64,000 bases of DNA, taken from NCBI GenBank assembly GCA_008632985.1, contig QPGO01000121.1:186001-250000 (forward strand). Reading direction: 5' to 3'. The DNA comes from Psammoneis japonica (taxonomy: Eukaryota). The position numbers and the translations under genes are program-made. Positions 19,445 to 64,000 of this stretch are shown one piece after another (within the stretch, counting starts at the first letter, position 1; every line of letters begins with the position of its first letter). The notes beneath the pieces were generated by a model. It was not told the DNA's origin, made no database searches, and saw only the letters and a list, made by a program, of their open reading frames with translations.

Positions 19445-19895
19445 GTGCGAGGATCACCTCTCACCATCTCTGCTCTAGGTCCTGCTGGCAGCTAAAGCCA
19501 CAATGCCTCCTCCTCGCGTGTTAGGAACCTACGAAGTTCAGACAGCCACTCTGGCATCCACTTTAGAGAGAGCGACAAGCAGCCCAGTTACAAGAGAGGG
19601 AAAGAGCTGTTGCAAACCAAACAATTTTCAGCACAGCACACAATCCACCCCCAACCAAACATTTTGCGTTTGGGTGTCTTCGAGATGCGCGGATGGCACA
19701 CCTCCAGCATTGGACTGCACAGCTCATTTCTGATGCCCACACATCTGGCTTCACTCAATGACACCAGCACTGTGCCTGGTTGCCTGCAAGAAGCAACCCA
19801 CCAATGCGCTGCATGCAGGCGGATCATGTGGATGATGAAGCCGCTGTGCACTCGGGTCTTTCAGGTTCAAGGATCACCTCCACTCATTGCTTGCC
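19445..19895 (-). pseudogene. Duplicated fragment of the RBR last exon/3' flank, hypermutated
   Basis: 19565-19813 aligns with 31702-31953; 19851-19895 aligns with 31621-31666; same orientation. Confidence 0.85.
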
Positions 19896-35668: not shown

Positions 35669-35997
35669 GGTCTGCAAGCGGCGGCGGATGGAGGATCGAT
35701 TTGAGGATTGCTTTTTGCGGATGGCGCAGGCTGGGAAAGATTGTACGCAACCGCTCTTATCAAATCTACGAACGTAGAAAAAGTACGGGCATTCACGAGC
35801 AAAAAAGAAGCGCGGGACTTCTTCGTACGTACGTCGTCCGCTGAGCACTGCGATGACGCGTTTTTTGGCGCCAAAGATTTGCCGCCTGCCGCCCATTTAG
35901 ACTCCCTGTACCATATTCCACATTCCAATTCTGTTACGGCTTCAGGGTGCTGTTGCAGTTGTGTTGCTTGTTGTTACGGGCATCATCAGCATCGACC

Positions 35998-36680
35998 ATG
36001 AGCACCGACACTCGCCAACGTAGAGGGAAGAAAGCGAATCCCTCCGCTACAGGAAATGCGTTGACCGCGGAAGAGCAGATTCAAAAAGCAGAAGCCACGA
36101 TTCGCTCCAACCGAGACACAACCTCAAGCTCTATGCTCAATGGCGGAGTTACTTGTTGAAGATTGGATTCCTTGTTGTCGTTATGGCATTCCATCAGGCC
36201 ATGGCCCCCATGACGGCGTGTATCACTGATATCAAGACTGTAAACGCAGCGACGGATGGAACGCCCGTGCATTGGACCGAAGCAGTGCTCATGGTGCTTC
36301 ACGAATCCACCTGCGAAATTGTGGGAATTTTCATTGCGGCGTGTCTCGCAAAGTTTCTTTGCTCAGACCCACCCGGTAAATTTTCAGATACGTCTTATAT
36401 GGTTGCTTCGACATTGGTGCCGTTGCAGCTGTCTCTGTTTTATCGAACGAAACGAATCGGGTGCTTGGGAGATTTCGAACTCCTCAGTGCAACACAAGAC
36501 GAGGTGAACCGTGAGAGAAGCTTTCCTGTGGGGCTTGTTCTTCATTTGATTACCTCTGGGTCCTATTGGTTTATGCAGTATGGAATGGAGACTGCTGATA
36601 AGAACCTGCGGCAACTGGATGATCTTAGACGTCAGCTAAAGGACGCTCAAAAGAACGCGAAGCGTAAGCAGAAATCGTAA
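35998..36680 (+). CDS. Multi-pass membrane protein of unknown function; probable frameshift near 36120
   Basis: MSTDTRQRRGKK… joins NLKLYAQWRSYLLKIGFLVVVMAF… with one indel; several hydrophobic segments and a basic C-terminal coil. Confidence 0.6.
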
Positions 36681-36893
36681 CACCAAATTCTAGTGTCAAG
36701 CTTCGTGAAGAACGTAGGGAAAGTACCGAATAACATTTGGTTAGTCAGGTGATCTCTAGCCTTATGCTGGGTAGCTACTAAATCGACGAGGCATCCCAGT
36801 GATAGCTGCATGGGCGCCTGGGAGCAGAGTGGTCTTCTACCATGAACAAATCAAAAGTCGATTCTGGTTTTATGTTTCTTGTAAATGTAGCGC

Positions 36894-38644
36894 TTAATGT
36901 CTTTGTGCTTGTTCCGGCAAACCAGGAATATCAACTGTAAACACCTTGTCCATTTCCTTCACAAGCTTCTTGTCAAGCTTTGGAAATTCACTCAGATCCT
37001 TGATCTCTGATAGTGCTTGTTGCATGGGTCTTACAGGGGGAAAGTCGCCTCTTGGCAGACCATATCGTCGAGCTGCTGCCATCATTTCTTGATCAAGTCG
37101 TCCAACAAGCCGAGCCTGCTTCTCTCTCTTTCCCCAAGTATACGGTAATTGTTTCCGCAAGTAATGTATAATGTATGCATGAACCTTGACGGCACGTGCT
37201 CGTTTTACCAAATCATTGATTTTTCTCATAATGGCTTGCTGTGGCAATTTCTGGATATCTCGCAGCAAGTCGCGTTCTTCGTTTTGCAAAAGTTCTGCTT
37301 GCTCCGAGTTTCTCATTGGTTGATCCCAAAAGCTCCCCATGTATACACGACACACCTCTGGCGTATTCATCACCTTACCCAACGACCACATGAGTGCCCC
37401 ATATACTCTCATGAGCTGCTGCGTTCCAATGCTATCCGCCTTGTTGAGAACAATTCGAAGCTTATCCAAATGAGGAACCATCATTTCCATTACACTCTGC
37501 AGTTCATCCGAAATGTCCAGCTTGTGTGCGTCAAACATGACAATAATCAAATCCGCTCGCTCGGCAAACCACTTCATCACACCCTCATAGTCATAGCTGC
37601 GCGAACGTTGCTTTTGTCCAGACAAGATTCCCGGCGTATCGACAAGTGTGACATCGCGTAAAATGGGTGAATCCAATTCGACTCCCTCCATGCGTGACAA
37701 GAAATTGTTACCAAAGGGGCTCAACCCCGTAAACTGCCGATGTGTCTGAGAGCAAAGTGCGGCGCCCGGAATGATTTTATCTCTTTCTCCATGCAGTACG
37801 GCAGTGAAACGATCTAAAGGACAAAATAAAAGTAGTCAGCACTTGTTTTGTGGGAGTCGAGGGGAATGCCAGATCTCTATGAGAAGAACGCTTTCCATAA
37901 ACATACCTGTTGTGGGTTCTGGCCCAACGCGAATACCCGGAAAGTCTCGTCCCAACAGGTAGCGAATAAAGGAAGTCTTTCCAACACTATATTGACCCAA
38001 CAAGAGAACCATAGGTGGAGCATCAAAGTCTGAAGGAGAAAGCGGTGGCGACTGGAACAATGCATACTTGGACGCCAGTTCGAGCGGTAAAATTTTCTTT
38101 CTGTATAACCGAGCCACTCCTCTCAGTATGAATTCCTTATCCATGTTGGAAAGTCTAAACCTGATGTATCATCAACCAAGGCTGGATCTTCTGCCGATGT
38201 GTGGTCTGCTGCCGTTGGCTCGTCATAGTAGCCCGGGTGTTGATCTGGTAGCGGCGGTGGTTGACTGGAATCATAGCTATCGGGTAATTCGGGAGGTGGT
38301 TGCTCGTCTGTTTGTTGTCTCGAAGAACTATCCATGTAGCCCTCATTCTGATCAGGGTAAGGTGGAGGATATTCATTTCCATACTGACCCGGCATTGGAT
38401 GGGAAGAGTAACCATCGTACTGTTGTTGCTGTTGTTGTTGTCGTTCCCTATAATAGCTGTGTTCTTGCTCGGGGTGTCGTGGCGGAGGCGGTCTATCTCC
38501 TCGTGGTCGCATTTCCTCGCCAGGCAATGACGGTGGTGTGTCCCCAACATGGCCTCCACGACTTATTCTAGCAATGGATTGCACATTCCATGTCGGCCGT
38601 CTCAACCACAAGAACGCAATCGCCACATACCGCAGAAGCATCAT
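36894..38644 (-). CDS. EHD/RME-1-like dynamin-superfamily ATPase with N-terminal signal-like peptide and no EH domain; intron 37814-37906; frameshift near 38150
   Basis: PMVLLLGQYSVGKTSFIRYLL, GPEPTTD|RF across the intron, FGNNFLSR, VDTPGILSG, FDAHKLDISDE, LMRVYGALMWSLGKVMNTPEV. Confidence 0.9.
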
Positions 38645-39134
38645 TTTTTTCTGAAAGTTCTCAAATCAAAATTTTCTCTTACAATTTTTCGAGTCTCTGC
38701 ATTCCCACTCCAATATCTTTTCTCCAGCCTACGTGGTGTAAATGGATCGACCTATGACTGTAAGACTCAGGATCATCAACGACATCAATCAAATAATAAC
38801 AGCCGACAACACCAACAACCCAACAACCAACAAAAGCTTCACAAATTCACAAGAAAATCTTCAACGTGGAAGCAAAAGGGCGCATTGGAAGCGAGTGCCG
38901 AGGTGAGCAGATGGACAGACGGATGACATCATCATGTCCGTCCATCGGCCGGAAAACCGCGCCCAAAACTCCGGAAGTGCGTTTCCCTACGTGGCATCAG
39001 TACCGCCGGAACGTAGACTGACGTGGGCGTTACGAAACTTGCACTTTGCACGGGAAGAAGCTGACCGCACAAACTCTTCTCACATTTTTCTCACATTTTC
39101 GCGTTCGCAGATGGAACACAAAAAGAGAAAGAAC

Positions 39135-41125
39135 ATGACAGCTTTCAAGTCTGTTGCACTTCAAAGGCTCTTGCTGATTGCAGCTGGATCAAGCCTCCTT
39201 TTCTCACTGATGCTTTCGTCCCCGCTACGTTTGGTGTCAATCGCAGACGCAGATACACGAGACTGCGGTAGAAGATGGCGTTGATGTCCGAACGGGAAAG
39301 CCAACGGGTATGTCTTTTCTTCCAGAGGAAACAGTCGAAAGATGTAAGAAGGGAAGCAATATTGAAAAAATTAAGGCAGCAAAGGATGGTACCTCGGCTT
39401 GGGTGGATGTGTACGAATACGCTAGAAAGATTAGGGAAGGTGAAATGACGTGGGAAGAAGTCGAGAAGGCAGATCTGGACAATGTAAGTGCTTTCTGAAG
39501 ATCCGCGGAAACGCAGGAATAATCTCCGGAAATACATTACTCACTATTGTAATTGTTTATTTTTAAATCGCAGAGATTAAAGTACGTGGGCATGCTCCAC
39601 AGGAATAAGCGCACTCCTGGACAATTCATGATGCGATTGAAGGTTCCCAACGGTATCATCAATTCCGATCAGCTTCGGTTTTACGCCGACAGCGTTGAAA
39701 AATACGGCGAAGAGGGTGGTGTGGTGGATATTACTACTCGTCAAAATATCCAGCTTCGCGGTGTCAAAATTGAAGACGCACCCGATATCATTGACGGCTT
39801 GCACGCGCGGAACCAAACATCCTTTCAGTCGGCCTTGGACAATGTCCGAAACATGGTGGGCAGTCCCCTTGCCGGCATCGATGACCAAGAAATGGTGGAC
39901 ACTCGTGAAATTTGTAATGCCCTGAATGATTTGGTTAGTTTGGACCCCGTCACGGGCACACGTGGAAACCCCATTTGGGGCAATCTGCCGCGCAAATTCA
40001 ACATTGCCGTGTCGGGATCCCGTGATGACTTTGCTCACACGCACATTAATGACATTGGACTTGTTCCCTGTGCTCATGCCGAGACCGGCGAAATGGGCTT
40101 TAATGTTGTCTTGGGTGGATACATGTCCATCAAGCGTGTCGCAGAGTCCATCCCAGCAGACATGTGGATCCCCGCTGACCGCAACTCAGCCGTGACACTC
40201 TGTGAAGCGATTCTTCGTATTTTCCGAGATGAGAGTGAACGCAAGGATCGTCAAAAGGCCCGCCTCATGTGGCTCGTAGAAAAGTATGGAGTGGAGGAAT
40301 TCAAGGCAGCCGTCATTAAGGAGATTGATAGCTACGACCGTGGTGTTACAGTTTGCGATGCCCAACCCACTTCAACAGAGCCATTTGAGAGGCGTGAACT
40401 CAACGGTGTTCACAAGCAGCCGCAAGAAGGCAAAGTGCGTGTGGGCATCATGGTTCCTGCCGGTCGTCTCCACCAAAAGGAATGCAGAGAGATTGCCGAT
40501 CTTGCCGACAAATACTCTGACGGTGAGATTCGCCTCACAGTCGAACAAAACATTATTCTTCCCAACGTTGACGAATCTGCAGTGGATGACCTGTTGAAAG
40601 AGCCGCGCTCGAATCCCATGCGAGACTCAGTGCCAACCCGGGTTTATCGAGGGAAATCTTGTCAGTTGTACCGGTGCTCAATTTTGTGGATTGGCACTGA
40701 TTGAAACCAAGAATAATGCCGAGCGATTGGCAACGTTGCTTGAAGAGAAGTTTACGGTCGATAGACCAATCCGTATTCACTGGACTGGATGGTAAGGCTT
40801 ATGCTTTGATGAGATGAAAAGTATTTTTGCATTTTTACACCTGTGCTAACACTTAGTTGCGTGTTCAAACAACAGCCCCAACAGTTGTGGACAGGTCCAA
40901 GTGGCAGATATCGGAATCATGGGCGCCCCCGCCAAGAAGCTTGATGAAGAGAGTGGTAAAATGAAGGCCGTTCCAGGATGCAAGATTTTTGTTGGAGGAC
41001 GCATTGGCGAAGACGCTCACCTCGAGATGGAGCCCTTCAAAACTGGCATTCCTCTGGCAGAAGAAGACCTCCTTCCGGTTCTGGAAGACATTCTCAAGAC
41101 CGAGTTTGGTGCTGTTGAAAAGTAA
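39135..41125 (+). CDS. nirA: Ferredoxin-nitrite reductase, plastid-targeted; introns ~39484-39573 and ~40792-40875; several probable indels
   Basis: FMMRLKVPNG, DITTRQNIQLRG, DNVRN, NLPRKFNIAVSG, HINDIG, RQKARLMWL, CTGAQFCG and HWTGCPNSCGQ sirohaem/4Fe-4S cysteines (after restoring frame); DAFVP targeting motif. Confidence 0.92.
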
Positions 41126-41570
41126 AAGTGGGGTATAATGCATTTTTCGCGGCTATGAAGTAGTTTGCGCTCTGTAATTTCTAGACAAAAACGAGAATTC
41201 GACTTTGCAGCTTTTTTTTTCTCTGCATGCGCAAGTAACCTTACATACGAACCGTGTTGTCAGGATTACTAGAGAGAAGCACAGGTGCAACTCTGACAGC
41301 CACATTCCTACATTCCATTTGAGAGGTTCATTAGGCGAACCAAATAATATCAAACCTTAGTACAGAAGGCACACTCTACTGTAGAGAGCTGGTGCACAGA
41401 AACAAGGCACTAGAGGACAGCCAAAAGATTGTCCTTCATCAGTGGCCCCCAATCCTGTACAGGAACTCCTGCTTTCTCTAGTCCTCGGATTCATTTTCGA
41501 TAAAAGCTATAAAGAATAATGATTTGGGCTGCACTAGAGATAATCCTTGTCTGGGCAAGACGCGTGGTCC

Positions 41571-42250
41571 TCCTGCCGGTGTCGCTGGATCACACCGAGT
41601 TTCGCAATGTTCTGGCAACTGCCGTTGCAACTGTAGAAAAGGATCAATTGTGTCTTCTGTATTTCCTAGAAGTAGTGACGCAATACAGACCATTTACCTC
41701 CTGCCGGTGTCTGTCTGGAAGTCACCGAGTTTCGCAACGTTCTAGGAACTGCCAGAAAGGACCAATTGTCGCTTCTGCAGTTCCTGCTAAAGATGTGACG
41801 CAATGCAGATCATTACCTTCCCTACTGCCGGAGTCTCGTTGGAAGACACCGAGTTTCACAACCTTCTAGTTACTCCAGTCGCAACTCCAGTAGCAATTGT
41901 GACTATTCTTTAGTTCCTAGAAGTAGTGACGCAATGCATGCCATTACCTTCCCTCCTGCCGGTATCTGGCTGGCAGACACCGAGTTTCGCAACATTCTAG
42001 TAGCTACAGTCGCAACTCTAGAAAGGAGCAATTGTGGCTTATGTAGCTCCTCGAAACAGAGACGCCATAAGGTCCTGCAGACCATAAGCTTCCCTCCTGT
42101 CGTCGCGTACGTCGCGCCGGTGTCTGGCTGGAAGACACCGACTTTCACAACGTAACGTTCTAGTTGCTCACTTCGCAACTCTAGAAAAGTGGAAATTGCG
42201 GCTTCTGTAGTTCCGGAAGCAGTGACGCAATACAGACAATTACCAACCCA
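41571..42250 (+). repeat. Diverged tandem repeat, ~5 units of 124-158 bp
   Basis: gccggtgtc…caccgagtttcgcaac…caattgt…gtgacgcaat recurs from ~41572, 41700, 41825, 41956, 42116. Confidence 0.85.
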
Positions 42251-42456
42251 CTACCGTAGAGGCCTAGCTAGACAATTTTCGAAAACCAATGACAATACTA
42301 TCCTACATAAAAATGAGAGCTATCCTTCCCCTCAAAGACACATTACTATCACTAGTATGTGCGCAGAAACCACTTACTTTACAGCCAGCAGTTAATCCTC
42401 CGCCACTCTCTAGCTCCGCCAATGCTCTCTACCGCTACCTCCATCAAGCGCCGGAA

Positions 42457-42939
42457 CTACGAAGCCGGGGTGTTCTTTCGAGCTTCAAGCCGCACCCTCT
42501 TCTTGTACTCGATTTTGTTGGAAGTATAAAGATTGTAAGCTTCGCTTTGAGCCGGACTGTTGGGATTAGGATCATCTAGCAAATCCTGAATCCCCATCAA
42601 CACTTGCTTAACCGTGATAGCAGGCCTCCACCCCTCTTCTTCGTTGAGAATCGACAGACAAATCGTCCCAGACGGATACACGTTGGGATGAAATAGCGGC
42701 GGAACAAACTTGCATTTGGGAGGCTTGGATGGATACTCGGTCGAGAACTCCATAAGGACCTTGTACACACCGCCTTCCCAATCGGTCCCCTCCTTGCCGG
42801 GGATTCCCGTGTCCCACTTCATAATGTTGGTGCTGCCGTCACCGTTCGACGTTGGTCGAGCGTAAAATCCAAACGGATGGTCTCGGCGCCATGCTTTGCG
42901 CTCTTCTTGAAGACGTCCACGTGCGATACCAGCCGACAT
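42457..42939 (-). CDS. UBC9: SUMO-conjugating enzyme Ubc9
   Basis: [25 protein letters not shown]…[16 protein letters not shown]…WRPAITVKQ. Confidence 0.97.
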
Positions 42940-43242
42940 GATACTGTGTTCGTCTTTGCGTTGCGGCGTTGCTGTTATCGACTGTCTTTGGTCTTCAACA
43001 AATGTCGCTTGCCGCCTGCTTCTTCTTCTTCGCACCAAAACTCTTGACCCAAAAACTCGAAAATCGCTACGGCGTCCGTGGGAGTACCACAGTCCCGTAT
43101 GTGCTTTCTCATAGTCTTGCTACACACGAAATTTTCGTAGACTTCGACGTGTAGACTCCAGATTTTGAATAGACGAACGGAAATGGCAACCCAAATCATC
43201 GGACAATCGCTCAACACAGACATATCTTTGGGGGTGACTTCA

Positions 43243-43250
43243 TGACGTCA
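43243..43250. promoter_or_regulatory. TGACGTCA (CRE-type bZIP site) between divergent UBC9 and SOD genes
   Basis: Perfect palindrome ~50 bp upstream of the SOD ATG; motif match only. Confidence 0.3.
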
Positions 43251-43296
43251 GTGGCCATCAACACACAACACAACACAACGAGAGACGGTCATCACC

Positions 43297-44390
43297 ATGG
43301 TGAAGCTATCGCTTGCGCTCTCGTGCCTCCTTGCCGGATCGGCAAATGCCTGGTCCACCATGACCATGAAGACAGGTAAGGAAAAGCAAAAAGACGAAAA
43401 CGAGAGAGAGAGAGTTTGGTGGATTGAAAAGCGTCAGCTGCTGCGACCATGGTATCTTTCGCTAGGAACGCCAACGAAACGTCCATACGTTGGAATGAAT
43501 TGGCAACAACTTGGAGCAACCTGTTGCGAGCGATTTTTGTCTCTTGTTTCTGACTCGTGGAGGCTTGATACCATTTTGCTGGTAATACCTAGCTAAGATC
43601 CCTCTGAAATTTGAACCCTGCCGATGCTCAGTCTCTGCTTTCTGTCTTTTCATGTGTCACTTCAGAGTCAGGCGCCACGTCTCGTCGTGGCTTTGGCGCG
43701 GCCATTGCTGCTGGTGCTGCCATGGCATCTCCCGCCATTTCCCGGGCCTACGATCTTCCCGATCTCCCCTATGACTTTGAAGCTCTTGAGCCGTACATTG
43801 ACACGCCCACCATGAAGATTCACCACGACAAGCACCACGCCACGTACGTTGCCAACATTAACAAGGCGACCGAAGGCAAGGACGAAGTTCCCATTCTGGA
43901 ACTTCAAGCCAATGCTCTCGAGGCCGGTCCGGCCGTTCGTAACAATGGCGGTGGCCACTACAATCACGCCTTTTTCTGGCAAGAAATGGCTCCCCCGGAC
44001 GATGCCAAAAAGACCGAGCCATCCGAACAGCTTCAGGCGCTCATTGACAAGTCGTTTGGATCCATGGATGAGATGAAGGCGGCCTTTGAGGCGCGTGCCG
44101 CACCGGGTGCTCTCTTTGGTTCCGGGTGGGTTTGGGTCTGTGTCAACCAAAAGGGAGACGAGCTCAAGCTTGTTGGAACGCCCAACCAGGACAACCCGCT
44201 CATGAAGGGCGTGGCGGACGAAGTCATGTTTCCCATTTTGGGTCTGGATGTCTGGGAGCATGCTTATTACCTCAAATACCAAAACCGCAGGCCCGAGTAT
44301 GTGAACAACTGGTGGAACGTTGTCAACTGGGACAAGGTGTCGGAGAACTGTGCTTATGTTGTCGAGAACCACGCTGGTGTCTCTGTCTAA
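43297..44390 (+). CDS. SOD: Mn/Fe superoxide dismutase (Mn-type residues) with multi-part presequence; intron 43376-43665
   Basis: LPDLPYDFEALEPYID, HHDKHHATYV, NNGGGHYNH, FGSGWVW, NQDNP, DVWEHAYYLKYQNRR; spliced N-terminus MVKLSLALSCLLAGSANA-WSTMTMKTESGATSRRGF…SRA-YDLP. Confidence 0.95.
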
Positions 44391-45099
44391 TACGCCAGCT
44401 ACTGACTACGTTTAGTATTATCAATGAGCTTTGCATTGCGTTATTGCATATTCTTCATATTGTGTCTTGACGGTAATTGTGAACTCAGCAAGCATTAACC
44501 ATCTTAGGAAGTAAACTTACGCTACTTGTGGTCAATGAGTAGGATGTTTAATCATGTGCTAGCTAGTCTACGAGTAAGGAGAGTTGTCGAACAAAGAGAT
44601 GTACCAGAAACCGAGTTCTCCCAGGAGAGAGAAGAGAAATGCTTCATCCTTTTTGCTTTCTGTAGAGGGAGAGCTAAAAAGATAAAGCTCAGAGGGAGAT
44701 GCCGGTACCGGTAGAGCCGGAGTGGTCACTAGCTAGACCTACGGCAGTCTTCAGAAGGAACAAGCTCAAGCTACAACCGCAACACAGCACACAGCGAAAG
44801 CACAGACGATACAATAGAGCTGTGAGACTACTCTCGCTACAAATTGAATTTGATATAATGCATAATTTTAATGATTACGCTAAGGCACCTTTTAAGAAGG
44901 TACGTGTGGTAGTTATGAATCTTCAAAATAATCAACATCGCCGCCGCATTGACAAAGAATGAGTGCTTTTCAAACAACACCCGATCTCGAGCAAGGAAAA
45001 TAATACTTGAATAAAAGTTGTCCTTCCATAGGTCCAACTTTACAAGTTGCGTCCATTGCTCATGTCGACATATGAAAGAGAGCCCCAAAATGAAGAGCT

Positions 45100-46558
45100 T
45101 TAGAAGTCACAGTGGAGGACGGTGTTAGCCACTTGCCCGTATCGGCTGCTAGTGTACTTCTTATTGACGGCTCGCAGTTCCGATGATGATGCGGACTTTT
45201 CGGCAAGAACCGCTCGTGCTACGGGAGCAATCTCCTCTTCGCAGTAGGATGCATACCGCAACAGAGTTGGACTCCATGAGTGTCGGCCTGCGCATCGCCT
45301 AGCAATGAAAACAGCCGCTGCCGCAAGTTGACTAGGAAGGTAGTGCAACAAAGCAAAACTCTGTAGAGTTCCGTCCAAGATGTAGCAAGACAACTGAACA
45401 ATCTTCTTGTCGGCGTGGGCAGCCTTTAGGTAGCGAACCAAAAATGCGTGAGCACTGGGAATAGTGATCTGATACTCTAGCGTCTTGAGGATGGTTTCTT
45501 CCATATCGATAATCTGAGTAGCGTAAGAATAAGAAGAACAACACAAGTAAGATAATTGATCAAATGATAGGATCGTGTTTCGAACGCAAGCCGACACGAT
45601 ATATATCTTGCTTACCTCGTCTCTCGAGTACGCGCGATCGCAAATGTAGACAAGGTCACGAAGCTCCGGAGGATAGATCTCTTCGTACTTGGAAGCAATA
45701 AGAAGAGCTGTGACTCCAACCAGCTGGAGTCTGGGCCTGGAAACCTCCTTTCGCTCCAAGTATCGATCGATAATGTTCACCGTGAGGTACAAGGTTTCAG
45801 GGACGAGTTTGAACTTAAGATGAACTTCGACAAGCCAGTCCACAAGAATAGATCGCATCCGCTCGTTGATATGCTGCTGGTTCTCCATGTAGAGGGGTCG
45901 TACTGACGTTACGATTTCCTTTTCGCGAAAGAATTCATACATCTCCTGAACGTACTCCGTGGCACAAAGAGGGTCCTCCGCGTCACGTTCATCAATGTTG
46001 TCCGCAACTCCTTTGCGTTGATAGCTGTTCGGGTCTGCCACAAGAGACTGAGATCGTTGCTGGAGACCGACACCACCACCAATCTTGGACAAGTTGCTGT
46101 TTTGACGAGGGATTACAGAGGAGACTGCAGGGTTCTCAGACGGACGGACGTTCGGGACATAGGCAAAGTTGTTGGCGCGCTTCACGGGCTTTGAACCACC
46201 TTTAGCGTTGTCGTTACCGAAACGTGACGAGTTGTTCGTGATTTCCTGTGTGACGTGCAAGAAGAAGATCATCGAAGAGGTAAGAATTCGAAAAAGAGAA
46301 AGAAGTTTGAAACACAGCGAGGTCGATTACATGAGGCGACGAAACAATATGTAGCGAGCAGGAAACATCAGGCGAGTCCTCGTGTAGTGAGAAAGATGAC
46401 GACGTAGCTATCATTGCTGCAGTTTTAGGGTCGATACACGCTTCGCCATCGTCCATCAAAGCCCAGAAAAATTTGAAACGTCAGAACGAAAACGAGTTTG
46501 AACTTACACCAAGAGCACGACGGGAGCCAGCGACAGAGTTGTTTGTCTGAGGAAACAT
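45100..46558 (-). CDS. CYCB: Mitotic (B-type) cyclin; introns 46246-46507 and 45514-45615
   Basis: Destruction box RRALG|EITN split by intron 1; cyclin box MRSILVDWLVEVHLKFKL; LQLVGVTALLIASKYEEIYPP. Confidence 0.93.
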
Positions 46559-52245: not shown

Positions 52246-54838
52246 AATTAGCAGGCATAACTGTCTCGTACTGCAGCAAAATTACATATCTTTGGCATGC
52301 GCCTTGTAAAGATAGTCTGTTAGACTACACTGATTCAGCATGTTCAAAATGAACTGAGTCGTAATCCTTGTTCACTGTTCGTATTTTTTCATTCTAATGA
52401 ATGTTGGAGGTCGGGCAATTTTCTGAGAGAGGCGAGATGACAGCATCGTGCGTACCGTACGATGTACAGCACTACTCTCTAGCTAGTAGAGAGTGCTGTG
52501 TGTATATGTTTTTTACGTCGTAATGTTTGCCGTCGACAAAAGCTATGAACTTCCCGCCTGCCACTGGCACTTGCAACTGCTCGGTTCCTTCGACGGAGCC
52601 GTCAAGAAGACAGACAAAAAGAGTAGCATGAACGACAATCTGAAAGCTTCACGCATGGCATGGATCCCGCACAGAACAAAATCATTGGCTCTGATGACCT
52701 TCCTGTTCCTGACAGCGTGGGCAGAGTGTTTGTGTCTCATCCAATCACCTTTTTGGCACTCCACACTGCAACACATGGCCGCATGACATTTGCTGCACTG
52801 CAGTTTTTTTTTTCAAGTTCCTTCTGACAGTGATCACACTCCAGATGCTCCTCCTTGCCAGCCTGCAGCATTGAGAATTAAATGTCTTTGAGTTGGATGG
52901 CCTGATCCAGCAGATTGTTGGCATGGTTGTGGTCAAAGAAGAGCTCCCAAGCCAGCTTGCAAGCCACAAAGAAAAGCTTCTTCAGGTGTGCTGGTCCATG
53001 CAGCAAAGCATGGTTGGAACATCTGGATTGCGGGAAACACAAAGAACCAGATGTGTTGAAGAAAAGACACTTTGGCTCCAGGCTTGGCTCACTGCCACAT
53101 CAACCCCTGACCAACATGCACACAAGAGCAGTTGCAAAGATGGCCGCAGCACAAGGCATCAAAGATTTTGCATTTGAGGGCAAATGTGGAGACAACCTGC
53201 ACAATGCTGATCAGACTGCAGAAGTGGAAAGCAACAACGATGAAGAAAATGAACTCAGAAGATGATGACCATGAAGACAAAAAGTGGCCTCTGATGAAAA
53301 GTGTGAAGAAGCAAATGAGATCCCAGCCAATGAAAGATCCAGCCCTGATCAACAGTGCCAGAGCAACAAAATTAAGAACGAGGATCATGATGACTGCAAC
53401 AATGCACCAAAGAAAACAAGGAAAGTGAAGAGCCAGAAAAAGACAAGAAACCCAAGAGAACAAAAGATGGGAAGGAGAAAGACCAGTGGATGAGGCAACA
53501 GCTGTGACTGGCAGAAGAGCCAGGTGTGGCAGAGCCTTCCATGCTGTGCACATGTTCAGAAACACAAGAGCACATTCTGAAAGAAGAAAGTTCAATTCAC
53601 AGCAGTGGCAGACACCACAAAAGTGAAGCACAAGCAAAACAGACTTGAAAGCTGTTGCCATTCACAATGAATGTGAGCCCCAATTCAGAGGATGACATCA
53701 AGCATGATGCAGAAACAGCAATTGTCAGCCAACTCCAATCCAGAAAGGGCACTTCCTTTGACCAGCAGCATTTGTTGCATGAAGACCTAAAAGTGTTTGG
53801 CCAGAGGGGGTTGTGACACCTCAGAGAAGGAGATGAAACAACTCTGCAACAGGGTGTGCTTTGCACTGATGTCAGTTGAATGCACAACTCCAACTGAGAG
53901 GACTGTCAAGGCTGTGATTGCATTGACATTCTCAACAAAGAAGCAAGATGGTCGCATGAAAGGGTGAATGGTTTGCGATGGAAAACCAGCTGCAGAATGG
54001 CCAGACAAGGATGATTCAGCCAGCCTGATGGCCAATGACAGCCATTGTCGACACTGTGGAAAAGTGTGATGTGATGAACGAGGATGGACCAAATGCACTC
54101 ATTCCCAGACATCAACCCCAGAGTCCACCAAGGAGGGTGAAGACCAGAAAATGGTGAAAGTTGCAGGAGTGTTGTTCAACATGCTGGTGAGCATTGATCT
54201 CAACCCATGCAAACCACACGTGGTTGCAGAACAGGAGAAGAGAGTCCTCTGTGTCCAAGTCATCAGAGCCACACATGGCATGTTGGTCACAGCTCCACAG
54301 CAGTGCAAGCCATTTTGCAAGGACCCAGAGAAACTTGGGTTCAACCCTTCAATCCATGCATTGCCAATTGAGTGGTCAGCAGTGGCAAGCAGCACGCTGC
54401 ACATTTCCATCATGTGGATGACCCACTGTCAAGCCACACGAACCCCCAAAAGCAAAAAATGACAAATTCTCAAGCTGGCTTGACAAGATGTGCAGAAGCC
54501 CTGGCACAAAGTTGTTGTGACATGAGGAAAGAAGCACAACTGCCTTGGAATGGTCCTGGACTTCAGCCACAAGGGCAAGGAAAAAGTCAACATGACTGAC
54601 TGCATTCTCACAAGATTGTCAGTCAGCTCCCCAAAAGAGATCAAGAGTGCGGATGCTGCCATGATGCCAGCTGGAGAGAACCTGTTTGATGCCAGTGGCA
54701 CGAGATTGCCAACCAACAAAGCAAGGATGTTCTGTGCATGGGTGGCCAAGGGACCATTCGTGTCCAAGAGAGGCTGCACGGGTGTGCACCCTGCCATTGC
54801 AGCATTGTGCACACAAGTCAGAGAGCTGACCAACAAGG

Positions 54839-55023
54839 TGACAGAACACCAAAGGGGAATGAGGACAGCGGTGTGACAGACTCCCCAAGCAATGTGACTG
54901 CAACAACATGAGCACTGGCAGAAAGAAGTGAGAGGCAGATCTCAGAGAGATCTGCTCGTCCATCTGAATGGTCTGGTCATCATCCATGCACAGTCTGTCC
55001 ATCACAGGACAGACAGGCTGACA
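54839..55023 (-). repeat. 3' LTR of Copia B (185 bp)
   Basis: tgacagaa…ggctgaca; adjacent to PPT; aligns to 59015-59175 with a 24-bp indel. Confidence 0.92.
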
Positions 55024-58000
55024 CCCTCCCCTGATCTGCAATGTCCAAAAGCAGAGAAGACAGTGCAGATCAACCCAAAGAACAGGGATGATGCAAACAG
55101 TGAGACCAAAGGACACAATGAGTGTCCAAGCCCAACACGCAACAAACGAGTGGGCAACACGCAGCAGGAAGGCTGCCGCAAAAAAAATGTCAATGGTGGT
55201 GTCCCATCATGTGTCAAGCATGGCGAGCATTGAGTGCCCATCCCAGAGCCTTGGTGAGGTCATTGCTGGGATTGATGATGCCAGGGACATGCGCGCAACA
55301 ATCTTGCTCGCTTCCTTCCATTCTTGGATTGTGAAGAACTGGGTGTCATGTGATGCAAGCACTTGGTGGGAGTGGAATGGTTGATGATCTTGATTGCCAA
55401 TTCATTGTCAATGCACAAAGGGGTTGGCTTCATTTTGGGAGAAACCCAATTCATGGAGAACATGGCAAAGACAAAGGACATGTTTGGCAGCAGTGCCAGC
55501 AGCACAGAATTCCACTCCTGCAGAACTTGCAGTGGTCACCGATTGAGTCTTGCACCAGAAGGAAATGGCGGCACCTGCCAACATGCAAGCACAACCCACC
55601 ATGGATTGATGGTTGCAAAGGTCATTGCCATGTGCAGCATCCAGGAAAGCAATGAGTTGATGGTCACACTCAGGGATGGGAAATGATGGAAGAGTTGGGT
55701 CAGCAGTCAATCGTTCATGTGGACAGGCGGGTGGACTGGAGTCATGCTTGCAGTTCAGTTCCCAATGCTCGGTTTGCCAAAGACACTTGCAAACACCCTT
55801 CGATGCATCACAATCACTTCAGCAGGACAGGTGGAAAACTTGGACAAGGCAGTGACAGCATGCCCAATGTCCAATCGGCACACAACATGTGCGTGCAACA
55901 ATTCACCAAGGAAGGTGCGGCATCCAAAACCAGCAGCCTCTTCAAGCTCCACATGCTCTGGTGCACCCTCAGCTGGGCTGACAGCAGTGTGCAATTCACA
56001 GATGGAATCAACAGGGATCAGAGCAGCCTTCAAGTCATCAGCAAGTTCCTCAGCAGTCGGTTTCACCCAACCATGCCAGAGGCACACCTGCTCAATGTAA
56101 CTGTGGACAGCAATGCCAAGAGAGTCATCACACTGGTGCATGTCCACACCATTGAACTCTTCAATCAGCCCAAGACACTTGAGTGGCAGAGTGGTTTCCG
56201 ATGAAAGTTGGAGGGTCTTGCCAATCTTGTCACAGATGCGTCTTGACCACACAGGACTCTTCAGGACATGCAATCAAGAAATCATTGACCTGCTGACAAA
56301 GCAACAAAATCTTGTGTCCTTCAAACACAGCAGAGCAGATGCACTTGTCATGCACATCATTGCAAAACAATGGGGTGACATCCAACAAAATGCTGTTGAC
56401 ATGGTTCTCCCAGAGCACGCCGGCTTTTGGGTGTTCTTGGAGGGCATGTTGCATCGGCAACACCGTGCTTCTATCCAGTTCAATGCCAAACCGGGGCTTG
56501 CACCACATTGTGTGCGCTTCATCTGTGGCAACACAGATGGGAAGGGATGGCTGGGGACAGTGCACACAGGCATCACGGGCATCACCTTCAAACACTGGAC
56601 AGCTCACAGCAGCCGTCAAAGCAAAGAACATCCGTTGGACAGGTTGCTCAACACAAGATGAGTGCGTTGAATGTGGATGGTGGAGAACAGATGCTGTGTG
56701 TGGAGAGCCATCACAACATTGATGAGAACGTCATGTGCCATCATGCTTGAGGTCATGTTGCCAATGTGGACAAAGTGCAACAGTGTCCTTGGGGGGCTTG
56801 ATTGGGGCACCAAACGCACCCAGTTCATGGAACTGATCCAATTGCTTGAACTCACCCACATGCCATTCAGGCCATGTGTGGATGGCTTCTTGAGACAATG
56901 GTGGGTGAAGGCGCCCAATGCATGGATTGTTGTTCAAGACAGGACACTCATGAAACAAGTGTCTCTCAGAACAAACAACACACAACTTCTTGGGTGCCTC
57001 CTGTGGAGCAGTCTTCAGCTTGCAGATGGGGAAGCTGAGCAGACATGATGAAAGATGATCTTCATCTGCAGATGGCAGATCCATGCCAGCCAATTTGTCA
57101 CAAAAGACATCAAAGGTGCCATCCTCTGGATTGTCTGCATCAGTGTGTGTCTGATTGGAATCATCTTCAACAGGAGGAACATCTGGAACAGCCAAGGCAT
57201 TGACATCAATGGCTGCACGATGGGTGTCCTCCTGATTGCGGTCCCATTTACAACATGAGTTGCGAGGATTTGCATGAGTGGTGACCGAAGGACCATCAGG
57301 TTGACAAAGAAAGTCAGACAGTGTCTCAACAATCTGAGCATCCATGTGCTTCTTGAGCACAGCCGGAGACTTCTGTTCATCACGTGTGGCGTGGGGGATG
57401 AGAACTTGGAGCATTTGGTGTTCTTGATGAAGACAGGCATCTCACATGGGTCATCCAATGTGGCGCCCATGTCAAAGACACAAGCACACAACTGCAGGAA
57501 ATCTTTGAACACGATGTGACAGTCAGTCAATGACAGGTTGCCTTGAGTGGGACAGGAGTCCACTGAACCAGCAGCTTCATTGTCAAAAGCTGGGTTGTTC
57601 TTGTGTGGGATCTGCTTGAGGGCCTTGCATCCATTGCCACAGCATGAGGCAACAATGCAGTGACACTTGCTGTTCTTGGGGAACATGCCCGCCTTGGACA
57701 GAATCTTGTGAAGAGAACTCTGAGCTTCCTTGCAGTGAACATGCGTGCGTTGAGGCAGGTTGTCATCCTTGTCATTGCCAATCGTGAAACCTTCTCACCA
57801 CCACAATCCTTGGCGAAGCACCACACAGGGTGGATGCAGTGCCCAGAATCAAAAGAGTGACTTTGGAAATTTTGATGCCATGCCCATGTCCCAGCAGGAG
57901 AGTTGTCATGACATGCTGGAGATTCCCTGAACAACATCTTCTGATCGGGAGTTGAGCTCATGATAAAGAGTGTGTCATCATTGAGAATCACACGCTCTGA

Positions 58001-58610
58001 GGCATCAATGTGGTGACAGCATTCATGGTCACAATGGACCAGCGAACTCTTCAGGGTGACTTCTCTGCATTCCTTGTGATCACATTGTCGCAAACCTCCT
58101 TGGGCAGAGTGTTGGGATTGAAGAGATGTTTTGATGTTGTGGATGATGTGGTGCCTCCTGATGTCTTGCCAGCAGCAGTTGAAGGCGGAGCATTGTTCAA
58201 TCCAAACTTGTTGAGTGGTGCCACTAAATCATTCACACCAACAGCTGCAGATCCTGCACTGGTCGAGGATGAGGGTGCAGGGGTTGTCTTTGGCTTGTGT
58301 GGGGTTAAAAAAAACTCACTCCAATCCCTGCAATTCCATTGCATGTCAGGATCAACATGGACATGCTGCATCAACATGACAATGTACAAAGATTGTCCAT
58401 GATTCTGAAGAGTAATTTTGATCATGGAAGAGAGAGCTTCAGGAGTCAAGCGGATTGTGTGGAGCTTGTCAGGGTCAACAACTCAAAGAGGTGCTTGATC
58501 CACAATTGTTTTGGCAGACTGCATGTTGGCAGGGTCTGTCATGCCAGGTGGGATTGCTTGATTGACAAGACAATCATGAAACAAGTCCACAATGTTCTTC
58601 TTAGGTTGAG

Positions 58611-58688
58611 CATGCTTGGGGTCTTCAAAGAATGGATCCAGATCAAACATGCTTGGGGTCTTCAAAGAATGGATCCAGATCAAACATG
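58611..58688 (+). repeat. Perfect 37-bp tandem duplication inside Copia B gag region
   Basis: catgcttggggtcttcaaagaatggatccagatcaaa at 58611 and 58648. Confidence 0.95.
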
Positions 58689-59014
58689 GAGTTCATGCAA
58701 AGCATGATCAGGGGCATGTGGAGATGTGGCATTGAGACATGTGGTTGGAACTCACAACAGATCTCTGCAACAGATGCAGAAGCGGCCTTTGCAAGGTTGG
58801 GAGATGCCATGGTTTTACCTGGTGAAAACATTTTTGGTCATGCACACGCAGAAGAAATCTGGCATGTTTCTATGAGCATGAAAAATGCCGGGAAAGTGAG
58901 AAAAAAATTGTTTCAGGAACAGAAGATGAGGCTTGGTTGATTGGCTCACAAAGCAAATGAATTAAAACAGAAAGCATGGTGCAGAGTTCAGTGGCACAGA
59001 GTGAGGCTCCAACC

Positions 59015-59175
59015 TGACAGAATGCCAAAGGGGGACAAGGATGGTGGTGTGACAGACTCCCCAAGCACTGGGACTGTGATGACATGAGAGCTGGCAGAAA
59101 GAACTGCTCGTCCATCCAAATGGTCTGGTCATCATCCATGTGCAGTCTGTCCATCACAGGACAGACAGGCTGACA
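59015..59175 (-). repeat. 5' LTR of Copia B (161 bp)
   Basis: tgacagaa…ggctgaca followed by TSD caagg. Confidence 0.92.
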
Positions 59176-60312
59176 CAAGGATTGGGGAAAGCTGGCCCAC
59201 TGCATCAAGCACCTGAGTGGGACATGAAATGAAGTCGCTCCACTGAGCACAAAGAACCTCCAAGCAATCACATGGCATGTGGGTGCACCATTTGTGATGC
59301 ACCTTGATTTTTTAAGAGCCACACAGGCAGAACTGTGATGGCAGGCAATGGAGCAGTGTGGGCTGTGTAAAAATGACAGAAGCTCAATGCCCAAAGCAGC
59401 ACAGAGGCTGAGCTTGCAGGAGTTGACATCCCAATGACCATGATTCTGTGGACAAAGTTGTTCATGGAGCACCAGGGGTGCCTGATTGACAAGAACATCA
59501 TCCTTTCCCAGGATGACCAAAGCACCATGCTGTTGGAAACAAATGGGCACAGGAGTGCTGGAAAGCAGTCCAGAGCACTTGGCATTTGGCACTTCTTTGT
59601 TGCCAGCCAGACTGAGAAGGGCAATCTCAGAGTGCAGTGTTGTCCAACCAACGACATGCAGACTTGATGACCAAGCCATTGCAGTGCAAGAAGTCATGAA
59701 AGTTCAAATGAGCCATCTCATGGGCTGTCAACTTCAAGCATGACAGGAGTGTTTCCTGTTTGTGACATCCTCAGAGGAGAGCTCAGAAGATGTCAAGAAC
59801 CACGTGGTTCAACCAGCCACAATTTGTTCCGGCAATGTTTTGTCATTCTTCAGAACAACCATCACCCATCAAGAATGAGACAGACAAGAATGAGAACAAC
59901 ATGCTGCACAACATGACAGCGCAGTGGTCAAGACCACTGGGGTGAGTTTGCAAGACTGGCAAGCATGACAAATGAGAGAAAACAAGAAATCCAAGATGAG
60001 GAGATCTGTGTGATGCAAGATGAATTGAGCTGATGGCTCACTGGTGGAAAGAGACAGTTGACTGTTGACCCACACCTCCATTGCAATGTTTTGGATGTGC
60101 GCCAGCAGTTGATTCTGTGTGCTGATGCCCCATGTGTGCACTGGGCGCTGAAAAAAAGATGTGTTACGACTTTGTCGTTGTGAAAATTATGAGCTAGTTT
60201 AGAGTAGAGAAAATGGGATCGTGCGAATAGGGAATCTTGCCAAATCCCTATTCGTTCGCATTTGGATCGTATCAAATCGATCGTGCGTTCGCATTATGGA
60301 TCGTGCGAATCA

Positions 60313-61106
60313 GACCCGTCGCAGTCGTGACGAAGGGGTGTAATTCGGGGTGTAATTTTGGGGTGTTTACACCCCTAAAAAAAAATTACAGCCAACAATT
60401 ACCCGTCTTGAGGCATGTAATTTTTGCCTGTAATTTTTGGTAAGTGCCTGTAATTTTTCGTACGAAAACAGACTCATCATCGTCCATGACGGCAACAAAC
60501 ATCAGAATGTCGAACAACAATGGCAACCAACAATCAACGACGAACTTCAACCAGCAAGAGATGCAAGAACTCGTTGATGGGGAACTATTTTGATATATTT
60601 ATGAAAGAAATAACGGCGAAAAACGATGAGATTGCCATCAACGGACAACAAAATGAATGCAAGTTCATGCCATTTCAGAAGAAAAACGCGTCATGTGGTC
60701 GCTGAAACCTTGGCTATGGATACAATAGTAACATATGATGTTAATCACGTTATTGTAAATGTACTAGACTTGTCAGAACAATGATTTGATATGCGTAAGG
60801 TCGCAGCGGAGCCGCCGAACGCCATGGTGTTTTGATGCTGTCAATAGAATGTTCAGTTTCGCGTACAAATAAGTTAATTAAAATTAGAGATATAGAGTTA
60901 TTCCTGCTTTGTTATCAACAATTTTTGAGGAGTATATATTCAATGAATATATCATTCCTCGCAGAATTACAGACATCTAATTTCACACTCTCGCAGTCGT
61001 GAGAAAATCGGGTGTAATTTTGGGGTGTAAATTCGCGCGATGCGCGTTTTTACACCCCCAAATTACACCCAGAATTACACCCCAATTTCCACGACTGCGA
61101 CGGGTC
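60313..61106. mobile_element. Non-autonomous TIR DNA transposon (MITE; PIF/Harbinger-like by 3-bp TSD)
   Basis: Left end gacccgtcgcagtcgtg, right end cacgactgcgacgggtc (17-bp perfect inverted match, ~55 bp imperfect with ggggtgtaatt subrepeats); TCA on both flanks (60310-60312, 61107-61109); no transposase ORF. Confidence 0.85.
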
Positions 61107-61109
61107 TCA

Positions 61110-64000
61110 AGCCATCACGCGCCATGCACGAGTGATGTCATCGTGTGGAATCACGCTACCATCGTGGGCCAGACGACGGGCTAGTGTGCTTCACACGGAT
61201 GCTCTCTCAGCATCCTTCTGGAATTGCCTGAGACCTGGAGCCACGCCCTCCTGTGGTCGTGCTTCCCAGGTGTGTGTTGACAACACTGCGTTGCCACGCA
61301 CAAGAGGCTCATGCACGGTCTCACCGTGTTGTCCAGTGGCGAGGCACACTGCACACTCCCCCATGATCAGGGCCGTTGAGTGACAGAATGTCTCACTGGT
61401 GATGGGGTGCAATCTGCCGTAGATCACACGTGTCTGTCAGCGCTCCGTTCTGGACACGCAACGTGCCGTTGTCACACACACGGACAACTCTGGCGGGTCC
61501 TGCATGGCTGTCAGAACCGCACTTGGAGGATTGTTCCTGTTTGATGAGTGCCAATTGCCCCATGGCATGTTGATGCTCCTTGCGTTTCTGATTTTCACGC
61601 TTGTTGTTTAAGTGGACAAGCTTCTGCTTTCTGGTTTCTGTGTGCTTCCACTTGGCACGATGAGCAATGGACAAAACCGCATCGCGTCCGAAGACCAATT
61701 GCGCTGGACTTGCACGCGTGGTCGCATGTGCCGCAGCTCCAACAGCGAAGGCTGCTGCGGAGAGGATGCCACTCCATGGGTCATCTTCATCCAGTTCCAT
61801 GTCCTGCACTGAAAAGGAACGCACCATGTCACCAAGTGTCTGGCGCACACGTTCCACCATGGCATTTGCCTGTGGACTCCGTTTGCTTGTGGGTTTCTTC
61901 AAAATCCCACAGTCATTTTTAATCATCGGCTGAATTCTGCCATAAATTCTGTCCCACGGTCATAAACTGCCTGGGTTGGCCACGGATGTCTGCATGGCCA
62001 CGTTTGTTCCACGACGTTTGCTGCGACGTCTGCGCGTTTCGCAGACACTTCTTTAATCTTGAACCACCCGGTTGCTGGGTCAATCATTGTGACTGCCCAC
62101 AATTGCAAGGTGTCCTTTCCGCGTCTTTGAATTTTACATGGCCCTGTCACATCTGTGCATGGAGTCTCCCATGGAATTATCTCTGCGACCTTTTCTGGCA
62201 ACTTCCCATGATGCTGCGTTCGGCGTTTTGTCTTCTGGCATCGATCGCACTTGGCGCACGTAGAATGCACCGTAGACCTCACACTGGGCCAACAGAAGTG
62301 CTGGGCAATGGATGTTTCCGCACGTGTCTCACCTGGATGACACAGTGTCTCGTGGCACCATTCAGTCAGCGGAACCTGTGGTGCTGCGATTTTGTCCTTG
62401 TGACAGATTAACTGTCGTGATGACCCTCCCCCATGATGCGCACGAATGGAGCAGTCAGACGAGTCCTTGGCTCTTGAGAGCAGGCGCTTGTCCTTTTGTT
62501 GTGCTTTTTGAATGCGCTTGAAGGTGCTGAATGAGCCTGCCACCGCGGTCCAGTTTGTCTCAGCCGTTGAATGGCTTCGCAGACGTTTGCAGCATCGACT
62601 GTCAAGCAGAGCACTGCTGGCGCCACCATCTGGCAGTGCCTCAATGGTTTGAGTCTTGCCCTTGCCATGTTTGGCATTCACAGCTGCAAACAAGATTGGA
62701 GTGAGATGAGTCTTTTTAACTCGTTTGCGGGATTGGCCTGCAACACGTGTACGATGGTAATCCAGTTGTTCATTTGTACATTCATCTGATGTGCCAAAAC
62801 TGCCTGTGTCGTGTCGGCCCCCTTCTCAGGCGTCCGAATCTTCGGAATCACTTGAGTTGAGGTCGCGGAAGTGATTGAGCTCCTCCTCGCGGGCCTTGCG
62901 CTTTTTCTGAGCGTTGGCAAAGAACTCCTTGACCTTCGATCCGACAAGAGCATCAATGTCTTCCTCATTCCGAGGTTTTGCATCAGGCTTGCCGCCTCTG
63001 TCATTGGAATGTCCAGTCTTGACACGTTTCACGTGGTGCTTGAGCTGACGGCAATCCTCCGTATGATGTCCACAGTTGATCCTGCGCAGCATGCACGACT
63101 TCTGGGTGTTCCGTTGGGTCGTGATCAACGACTCAGGATTGTCCGTTCTACGTCCCCGCTTACATGGAACCTTGGCATGTTGGTCCTGGTTGCCTTCGGC
63201 AAGCTCGACCTGCTCGATGCGCTCGCAGAACTGCACAAATTCGGCGACAGTGTGCGCCAACGGGTCAAAATTCTGTAGCGTCATGAACTTCTGCCATGCG
63301 TTCGGCACACCGCACTCGAACATGTCGCACAGTTCGTCATTGGGCAATGGTGCCGGTGTTTCTCCATCCTCCGTCACGGGTGGAAACTGAGAGATGTGGC
63401 CGTTAATTTCAACAGCCCTCGCGACGTAGTCACGAGCAGAAACCTCTGCGGGCTTGCGCATGAAGCGCCGCAGATGACGCTTCTGCAACAGTGCCGCCCT
63501 GTGTGGGAAGATACTTTCCTTTAGCTTCGCGATGCATGCTGCGCACGTGGCGTTGGTTTGGCATGCCTGCTTGTCAGCGGCATTGTCAAATGACGTCAGA
63601 GCATCGCCCTGTGGCAGGTCATGCACAAGGGCAAATTTTGCTGGCCCGGTCGTGATGTTTTGTCCTTCATGCGCGCGATCCACGTTGTGCAGAAAGATTG
63701 GGAGTGTCTCGCATGTAGCCGCAGAAAGGTGCGGGATGCCCATCTCGTGCGTTGGACTGTCCGGATCAGCGGGGTTGTCACGCAGCTTGAACGTCTGGCA
63801 CTCGCCCTGCTGCAGCTCTTTCTTCTCTGGCCGTGCGAACGGAATCGGCGGCTCAACCCGCTTCTTCATGGTCATTTTAAGACTGTTCGGTCCTGCCAAC
63901 ATTTCGTAGTTTCGTTTCTGTAGATTTCGTCACCTCGCACAACATGCGGGAGCAATGTCACTGTGCCCTGCGCATGCACCAGGCGCTGAAAAAGAAGATG
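61110..64000 (-). mobile_element. Ty3/Gypsy element C, internally deleted (gag, PR stub fused to IN; RT/RH missing), runs off window
   Basis: gag 62826-63902 (QKRHLRRFMRKP, FCERIE); PR ALPDGGASS; IN HETLCHPG…CDRCQK, VTMIDPATGWF, YDRGTEF, PQANAMVER; PPT-like ATGGGGGAG (minus) at ~61356-61364 before probable 3' LTR. Confidence 0.92.

Follow-up and report, generated by a model that had tools for sequence, protein, structure and literature searches.

RIP acts on the repeated and transposon DNA of ascomycete fungi and changes C:G to T:A, turning CpA into TpA and thereby raising TA content; it depends on RID/DNMT4, takes place before meiosis and is triggered by homology. A chromosomal mutator that is specific for TpA and changes A:T to G:C has one report in the literature searched here, a preprint of 2026 on a different alga, Bigelowiella natans, where integrated NCLDV and virophage DNA undergoes TpA hypermutation (Mettrop et al., bioRxiv 10.64898/2026.01.13.699255). 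According to the preprint text, the same spectrum arises de novo in mutation-accumulation lines, ADAT2 is proposed there, TpA-poor sequences are enriched for transposon domains, and transposons are suggested as further targets; the words "diatom", "LTR" and "CpG" are absent from that text, supplements aside. A literature search that missed most subscription papers yielded no description of such a process in diatoms. A paper on amphioxus ADAT2/3 reports that a natural ADAT2 is able to deaminate adenines of DNA (PMC10354150); the amphioxus enzyme acts on C as well and favours hairpin loops. Silencing of transposons by DNMT5 is reported in Phaeodactylum (PMC9998398), and CpG methylation for one of the diatom Ty1/copia (CoDi) elements (PMC2806351).

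The locus described here, in the diatom Psammoneis japonica, resembles that of B. natans in the change itself (TpA to TpG or CpA), which affects both strands of chromosomal DNA in foreign-derived silent regions and proceeds in B. natans at about 1000-fold over background, as far as the preprint text goes. The two hosts belong to different supergroups (diatom and chlorarachniophyte), and in the diatom the targets are LTR retrotransposons, the process runs near completion (TA O/E 0.04, compared with 0.45 in the NCLDV region), CpG decay occurs alongside, and TAA/TTA contexts are resistant. The kind of evidence differs as well, being de novo mutation in B. natans and comparative in the diatom. Fungal RIP is similar in that dinucleotide-specific transitions accumulate in transposons after integration, genes are spared and LTR ages are inflated. 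Its chemistry, however, is the opposite: RIP creates TA, whereas the diatom process removes it, and the locus shows loss of TA in place of the C:G to T:A change with TA gain that marks RIP.

The window element and its family

The window is a 64,000-nucleotide stretch of contig QPGO01000121.1 (positions 186,001 to 250,000). Its cyclin matches, where named, diatoms or records labelled as diatom. It contains an internally deleted Ty1/copia LTR retrotransposon, which is one single insertion because both LTRs are flanked by a perfect 5-bp CAAGG target-site duplication (54834..54838 on the left and 59176..59180 on the right). The element limits given in the first-pass annotation, 54834-59180, hold, since this span takes in the duplication. 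The coding strand is the minus strand and the right-hand LTR is therefore the 5′ LTR. In coding order, all on the minus strand, the 5′ LTR (59015..59175, 161 bp with a 24-bp deletion, TA 0, CG 1) is followed by a degenerate primer-binding site (59005..59014), weak gag-side (upstream) reading-frame remnants (56929..57988, 26-38% identity to outside Copia proteins), an RT-RNase H remnant with frameshifts and stops (55193..56889), a polypurine tract (55024..55035) and the 3′ LTR (54839..55023, 185 bp, TA 0, CG 2). Compared with sister copies, some 2.6-2.9 kb is missing internally, the two sides joining at 56924..56925. A 37-bp exact tandem duplication within the element (58611..58684) is present as a single copy in L068.

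The GAG-pre-integrase, integrase and SH3 region is deleted from the window copy and present in sister copies. In those of 6.9-7.2 kb the domains GAG-pre-integrase, SH3 and RVT_2 follow one another in copia order, and the integrase region upstream of the RVT_2 reverse transcriptase is found in sister copies L071, L074 and L080. Pfam profiles give no match to the window element's own frames. The window element itself has the paired LTRs with TG..CA ends and the target-site duplication of Ty1/copia elements, and also their primer-binding site and polypurine tract, the match to tRNA-Met being short (7-nt core); half-tRNA priming is known among such elements. The same domain order, TG..CA ends and 5-bp target duplication are described for the CoDi elements, and no mention of TA loss was found in the accessible part of that report (PMC2806351). 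LTR searches of the genome scored the best 40 of 160 and the best 40 of 136 candidates, and the family has at least 40 LTR matches among those scored (best 40 of 160). Around the element lies a TA-depleted transposon block with sharp edges (52630..60160, 17 TA in 7.5 kb). Left-flank continuity judged by eye and a weak RNase H match to an older Copia element (59314..59601, plus strand, E 1.3e-4) weakly suggest that the element may have inserted into an older Copia remnant.

Differences between the two LTRs

Alignment of 54839-55023 with 59015-59175 gives 161 shared columns, 20 mismatches and one 24-bp gap. The earlier count is reproduced exactly: neither LTR contains TA, and they differ at seven reciprocal CA/TG doublets (54847/59023, 54860/59036, 54866/59042, 54901/59077, 54904/59080, 54965/59117 and 54989/59141), one CG/TG difference (54869/59045), five other single mismatches (two transitions and three transversions) and the 24-bp indel. 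When 20 substitutions are placed at random under three transition biases, with 100,000 runs each, the maxima are 3, 4 and 5 doublets, and seven are never reached. Across the whole window element there are 12 TA where 278 are expected, and 60 CG where 260 are (CG O/E 0.23).

Among the best 30 of 130 integrase matches in the genome, none is an unmutated family member (TA O/E 0.04-0.21), and the family sites therefore had to be polarised with relics and outside anchors. The doublet sites were compared with 63 other LTRs of the family. At 54860, 54866, 54904, 54965 and 54989 the family shows a mixture of CA and TG with CG in 0-2 LTRs, and at 54965 TA is still present in 33 LTRs. Family CG sites, in contrast, retain CG in 16-47 of the 63 LTRs, and the six clear ones are identical between the window's two LTRs in every case (6/6). 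By family state, five of the seven doublets are thus TA-type, two are secondary and none lies at a family CG site. One of the exceptions, 54901, reads TG in 59 family LTRs, TA in 1 and CA in 0. Position 54847 is CA in 10/10 LTRs of the window's subfamily and its partner 59023 is CG in one contig of the short-read run X1; this doublet probably passed via CG (CA>CG>TG). A further TA-type site lies at 54913, where a transversion has been added and the mismatch reads CA/AG.

Assigning each doublet to TA or CG, as had been suggested and as done here on the family LTRs, excludes an origin of all doublets from CG. The premise that a reciprocal doublet implies a palindromic ancestor is borne out at the five TA-type sites, but at 54901 and 54847 a palindromic intermediate suffices. 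The termini behave differently again. They had been read as TGACAG…CTGACA, derived from TGATAG…CTAACA and restorable by back-mutation, yet the terminal doublets are near-invariant in the family, unlike the mixed TA-type sites: 54842 reads CA in 62 of the 63 other LTRs and TA in the remaining one (TG 0), and at 55019 every one of the 57 LTRs with TA, CA, TG or CG has TG (CA 0, TA 0). In the TA-intact outside relative L141 an identical polypurine tract is followed by an identical, unmutated LTR start, so back-mutation is not needed for that end, and for the other end it is not supported. The more distant relative L197 has the LTR start in TA form, which may point to an older change there. The first-pass interpretation as a whole therefore keeps its post-insertional DNA mutation, mainly at TA, and its inflated ages, and loses the universal palindromic ancestor and the back-mutated termini.

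Direction of change

Three anchors outside the LTRs fix the direction as TA to TG/CA: tyrosine codons, the primer-binding site and a copied segment of host DNA. Thirty outside homologs share 24 conserved Tyr positions; the 532 codons that 28 copies have there encode Cys (258), His (205), Phe (34), Tyr (25) or other residues (10); 463/532 have thus become Cys or His. Conserved residues other than Tyr are retained over the copies (Trp 335/346, Gly 1015/1110). The RT-RNase H remnant of the window copy follows the same pattern, its 15 conserved Tyr positions reading His seven times, Cys six times and Tyr and Phe once each. The primer-binding sites of sister copies match the host tRNA-Met (L091) apart from a TA step at which pairing with the tRNA is required; of 15 distinct sites, counted after one additional row was dropped as a false match, 12 have TG there, two CA, one a degenerate sequence and none TA. 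This tRNA comes from an Rfam search with two tRNA-Met among the best 30 of 42 matches; a tRNA-iMet motif gave no match in the genome. The third anchor is the segment 19563-19813, a copy of 31699-31953, which is DNA just behind a retinoblastoma-like gene. Of its 20 TA, 11 have become CA, five TG and three something else, and one is kept, while AA/TT steps are unchanged in 25/43 cases and the remainder are mixed. As in B. natans, the A>G and T>C transitions are restricted to TpA.

Mutation after integration

Fifteen LTR pairs with target duplications were found, of which 13 were used and two dropped because their ends could not be fixed; the duplications are perfect in 11 of the 13. These pairs differ at 256 mismatches in 2382 columns, made up of 82 doublets, 20 TA-versus-CA/TG, 31 CG-versus-CA/TG and 41 other differences, and the left LTR carries CA in 39 doublets and TG in 43. 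The pairs of L074 and L080 have no other differences; that of L080 shows seven doublets, four half-changed TA and no CG change, with six CG in each LTR. Independence of direction was assessed over 102 TA-type sites in 23 copies (7/30 loci were left out as diverged or incomplete). The direction at one site is unrelated to that at the neighbouring site, at any distance, the balance per copy is binomial, and in the nine closest copy pairs shared states are no commoner than chance. Because the direction is random, unshared by neighbours and not inherited between close copies, the change is placed in chromosomal DNA after insertion and, as in B. natans, on both strands. The parents thus carried TA, and each daughter copy resolved every TA independently. 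The balanced direction, the zero neighbour correlation and the Tyr losses uphold the first-pass proposal of mutation on opposite strands after insertion, together with its argument against RNA or reverse-transcription-stage editing, neither of which predicts both the balance and the lack of correlation. A rule by which the flanking base sets the strand was tried and rejected as weak (0.18-0.53 on one strand); self-complementary contexts are skewed too, so site effects dominate.

All 30 bins of 52500-61000 have contigs from run X1. Within the TA-poor block these contigs differ from the window at 21 listed positions, of which nine are CG-type, four TA-type, four make up two CA/TG doublets, at 57108 and 59342, that separate the two versions of this one chromosomal locus, and four are of other kinds; eight small insertions also separate the two. 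The X1 contigs are likewise without TAs, so the loss is not a long-read artefact, although X1 is perhaps the source sample and hence no independent support. The differences hint at allelic divergence between X1 and the window.

Rate and relation to CpG decay

The three youngest copies show 1 ordinary difference in 582 LTR columns and keep TA at 3/66 Tyr codons, compared with CG at 102/131 Arg codons. The TA rate estimated indirectly from these three copies, by comparison, is at least 380-fold the ordinary LTR divergence (point estimate 1800), which is in keeping with the hundreds- to thousand-fold range of the B. natans type. Older copies, as judged by their ordinary LTR divergence, retain less CG in Arg codons (rho -0.71, p 0.015, n=11). 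In the copies compared, TA change runs well ahead of CpG decay, which is a second, slower process.

Distribution in the genome and in metagenome relatives

In transposon blocks TA O/E is 0.00-0.16, whereas genic kilobases reach about 0.4-0.9 and have CG near 1; as in B. natans, the effect is confined to foreign-derived DNA and genes are spared. The TA that survives in the window's blocks lies in TAA/TTA in 56/60 cases, compared with 517/1396 in genic DNA. Flanks give a mixed picture of spreading: TA is low for 200-600 bp beside four elements and normal directly adjoining L075.

Metagenome loci encoding relatives of the element (best 80 of 225) range in TA O/E from 0.16 to 0.80, and nine among these 80, about six of them distinct, are below 0.3. 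Relative to TA-rich sisters, TA has become CA or TG 43 times in L219 (sister L149) and 33 times in L175 (sister L150) with no reverse change, and 49 times in L201 (sister L188) with three reverse changes; in all three, TA is lost without a matching CG loss. Over the 1.2 kb tested, the best match of L219 to the genome of the window is 69%, so L219 comes from another genome. In L168, a TA-poor element adjoins a kinase gene with TA O/E near 0.6. These comparisons, added by the present analysis, indicate the same one-way TA change in related elements of another host. One lightly mutated metagenome copy has a strand skew of 38:11.

Mechanism and alternative explanations

The explanation favoured here, to which we assign a probability of roughly 85%, is that, after Copia integration, TpA steps in silenced DNA packed with transposons are changed from A:T to G:C by a host process. 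Each TpA would be hit once, on either strand about equally, giving TG or CA; with the target gone after one change, the process would saturate. The data show that integrated chromosomal DNA is the substrate and TpA the target, that both strands are affected and sites change independently, and that the change is near-complete in the youngest copies, with TAA/TTA the most resistant contexts and slower CpG decay alongside. Silent chromatin marked by CG methylation would confine the process to transposon blocks, as suggested by the C5 methyltransferase genes present in the genome and by DNMT5 silencing in Phaeodactylum. As a guess at the chemistry, an ADAT2/TadA-like enzyme would deaminate the A of TpA to inosine while the DNA is transiently single-stranded, and replication would fix the change; within the explanation this is the likeliest variant and has about an even chance of being right. 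An ADAT2-like gene (L226) and a TadA-like gene (L223) are present, both resembling ordinary tRNA editors. The ADAT2-like gene has the Asn equivalent to that of amphioxus ADAT2, a residue said to favour DNA activity but, in the part of the paper available, also described as conserved across ADAT2 orthologs (PMC10354150). The absence of strand-coordinated runs is a better fit to repeated single hits than to a processive deaminase, the 38:11 skew of the one lightly mutated metagenome copy notwithstanding.

Several other explanations have to be weighed. The same DNA-level change could arise as a by-product of thymine chemistry, in which T that is oxidised or otherwise modified is read as C, or of an error-prone polymerase in silent chromatin, not of deaminase defence. 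TA being a palindrome, A>G and T>C are indistinguishable, and independent non-processive hits also fit an error made per replication. Polymerase eta is expected to hit AA too and to make transversions, but AA/TT steps are mostly kept in the retinoblastoma-side copy. Thymine chemistry has a precedent in the 5-hydroxymethyluracil reported as abundant in dinoflagellate genomes (PMC11071213, as far as accessible), yet a search of the genome, run with no positive control, found no Tet_JBP match. This by-product origin is unlikely, though it deserves serious consideration. Plain 5-methylcytosine decay, in which every doublet would stem from a CG that became CA in one LTR but TG in its partner, accounts for a real part of the data: the low CG content of the element, the 31 CG-type LTR differences, the falling Arg CG retention, the nine CG-type differences among the 21 from X1 and, probably, 54847/59023, in a genome that has C5 methyltransferase genes. 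It is rejected as the main cause, and is very improbable, because it can neither remove TA nor make His or Cys from Tyr; five of the seven doublets and the Tyr and primer-site changes do not come from CG, CG is kept at family CG sites but hardly at doublet sites, and L080 has its doublets with every CG intact.

Editing before integration is scarcely more probable than CG decay. Reverse transcription passes through single-stranded intermediates, which would allow deamination of the cDNA. ADAR-type editing, as described in the B. natans preprint, prefers U before the edited A, which would suit A-to-I editing of element RNA (10.64898/2026.01.13.699255). RNA editing, however, would leave one direction and identical LTRs, and editing during reverse transcription strand-coordinated runs with a fixed direction between LTRs, whereas the observed doublets are balanced and uncorrelated, and two versions of one same insertion, in the window and in X1, differ by doublets. 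The strand-specific, clustered changes of ADAR/APOBEC-type editing are not seen. An artefact of sequencing or assembly caused by a modified base would be compatible with the small insertions between window and X1, which alleles would also explain, but TA is missing from the X1 contigs too and the pattern recurs in metagenome contigs. An LTR swap between copies by recombination is opposed by the perfect target duplications and by the window's two LTRs being mutual nearest relatives at non-target columns. The chance of either is negligible.

The preferred host process at TpA may serve defence through TA erasure. A wider proposal, to which we give slightly less than even odds, is that a dedicated equivalent of RIP, directed at adenine and shared with chlorarachniophytes, exists in diatoms and in one or more further hosts. 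It would recognise newly inserted transposons, erase about 95% of TpA before one ordinary substitution per 200 bases has occurred, and kill the elements through loss of Tyr codons and the primer site. Such a process would count as a new kind of genome defence and perhaps as a naturally occurring adenine editor of DNA, either old or repeatedly evolved, that acts on chromosomes. LTR pairs provide an internal clock in these algae, which are open to genetics, and it shows a change that postdates insertion, is nearly complete and greatly outpaces CpG decay.

Consequences for dating and annotation

In genomes of this kind, LTR dating, repeat annotation and models of GC content will err unless TA- and CG-derived sites are masked, and the loss of Tyr codons and of TAA/TAG stops creates long false reading frames in annotation. 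The expectation that LTR divergence overestimates age is confirmed, naive dating being 4-7 fold too old. For the window pair, the Kimura distance is 0.140 with all changes and 0.032 with ordinary changes (4.4-fold), and for the pooled pairs 0.120 and 0.017 (6.9-fold).

Conversion of TA in the window

DNA from the tail end of a retinoblastoma-like gene (31699-31953) recurs as a decayed copy at 19563-19813, on the margin of a TA-poor block. Relative to 31699-31953, 16 of the 20 TA dinucleotides in the decayed copy have been converted to CA or TG. In the interval 32024-46326, no more than 15 kb separates the retinoblastoma-like gene from a B-type cyclin.

The window also contains several repeats. 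Approximately 4 tandem units of 209 bp, sharing 95-98% mutual identity, are situated within a TA-poor block (8162-8947). Five degenerate repeats spaced 124-163 bp apart (41564-42194) occur in TA-normal DNA behind a nitrite/sulfite reductase gene. The segment at 60168-60451, which is normal in TA and borders the depleted block, is probably a short repeat of high copy number; its summed contig depth in X1, a short-read run with contigs covering the element region, is very high (22,699). A remnant of Gypsy type with Integrase_H2C2 occupies 61000-64000, with a TA observed/expected ratio of about 0.2 and a CG ratio of 0.8-1.0.

Copia copies in the genome and in metagenomes

Among the 130 integrase matches in the genome under study (G000), nearly every in-frame stop is TGA and TAA and TAG stops are scarce, giving rise to long spurious open frames in these copies. 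At the deletion junction of the element (56918-56925), comparison with the sister copy L062 shows a short stretch of about 7 bases in common, which suggests a microhomology-mediated deletion. In another Copia copy, L075 (G000:C166), one flank is TA-normal right up to the LTR (15 TA in 200 bp) and the opposite flank is TA-depleted, despite a target duplication common to both.

Copia relatives at seven loci on metagenome contigs (L175, L219, L201, L199, L190, L168, and L166) are from a host other than that of G000 and display partial, one-way loss of TA to CA or TG when compared with TA-rich sister copies. In the lightly changed metagenome copy L201, compared with the related locus L188, the direction of change is uneven (38 TG to 11 CA), in contrast to the balanced directions among G000 copies.

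C5-methyltransferase matches

Several additional C5-methyltransferase matches in the genome are grouped on a few contigs (G000:C297, C301, C10:610995-617549, and C28:650504-651471), and some of them contain stops.
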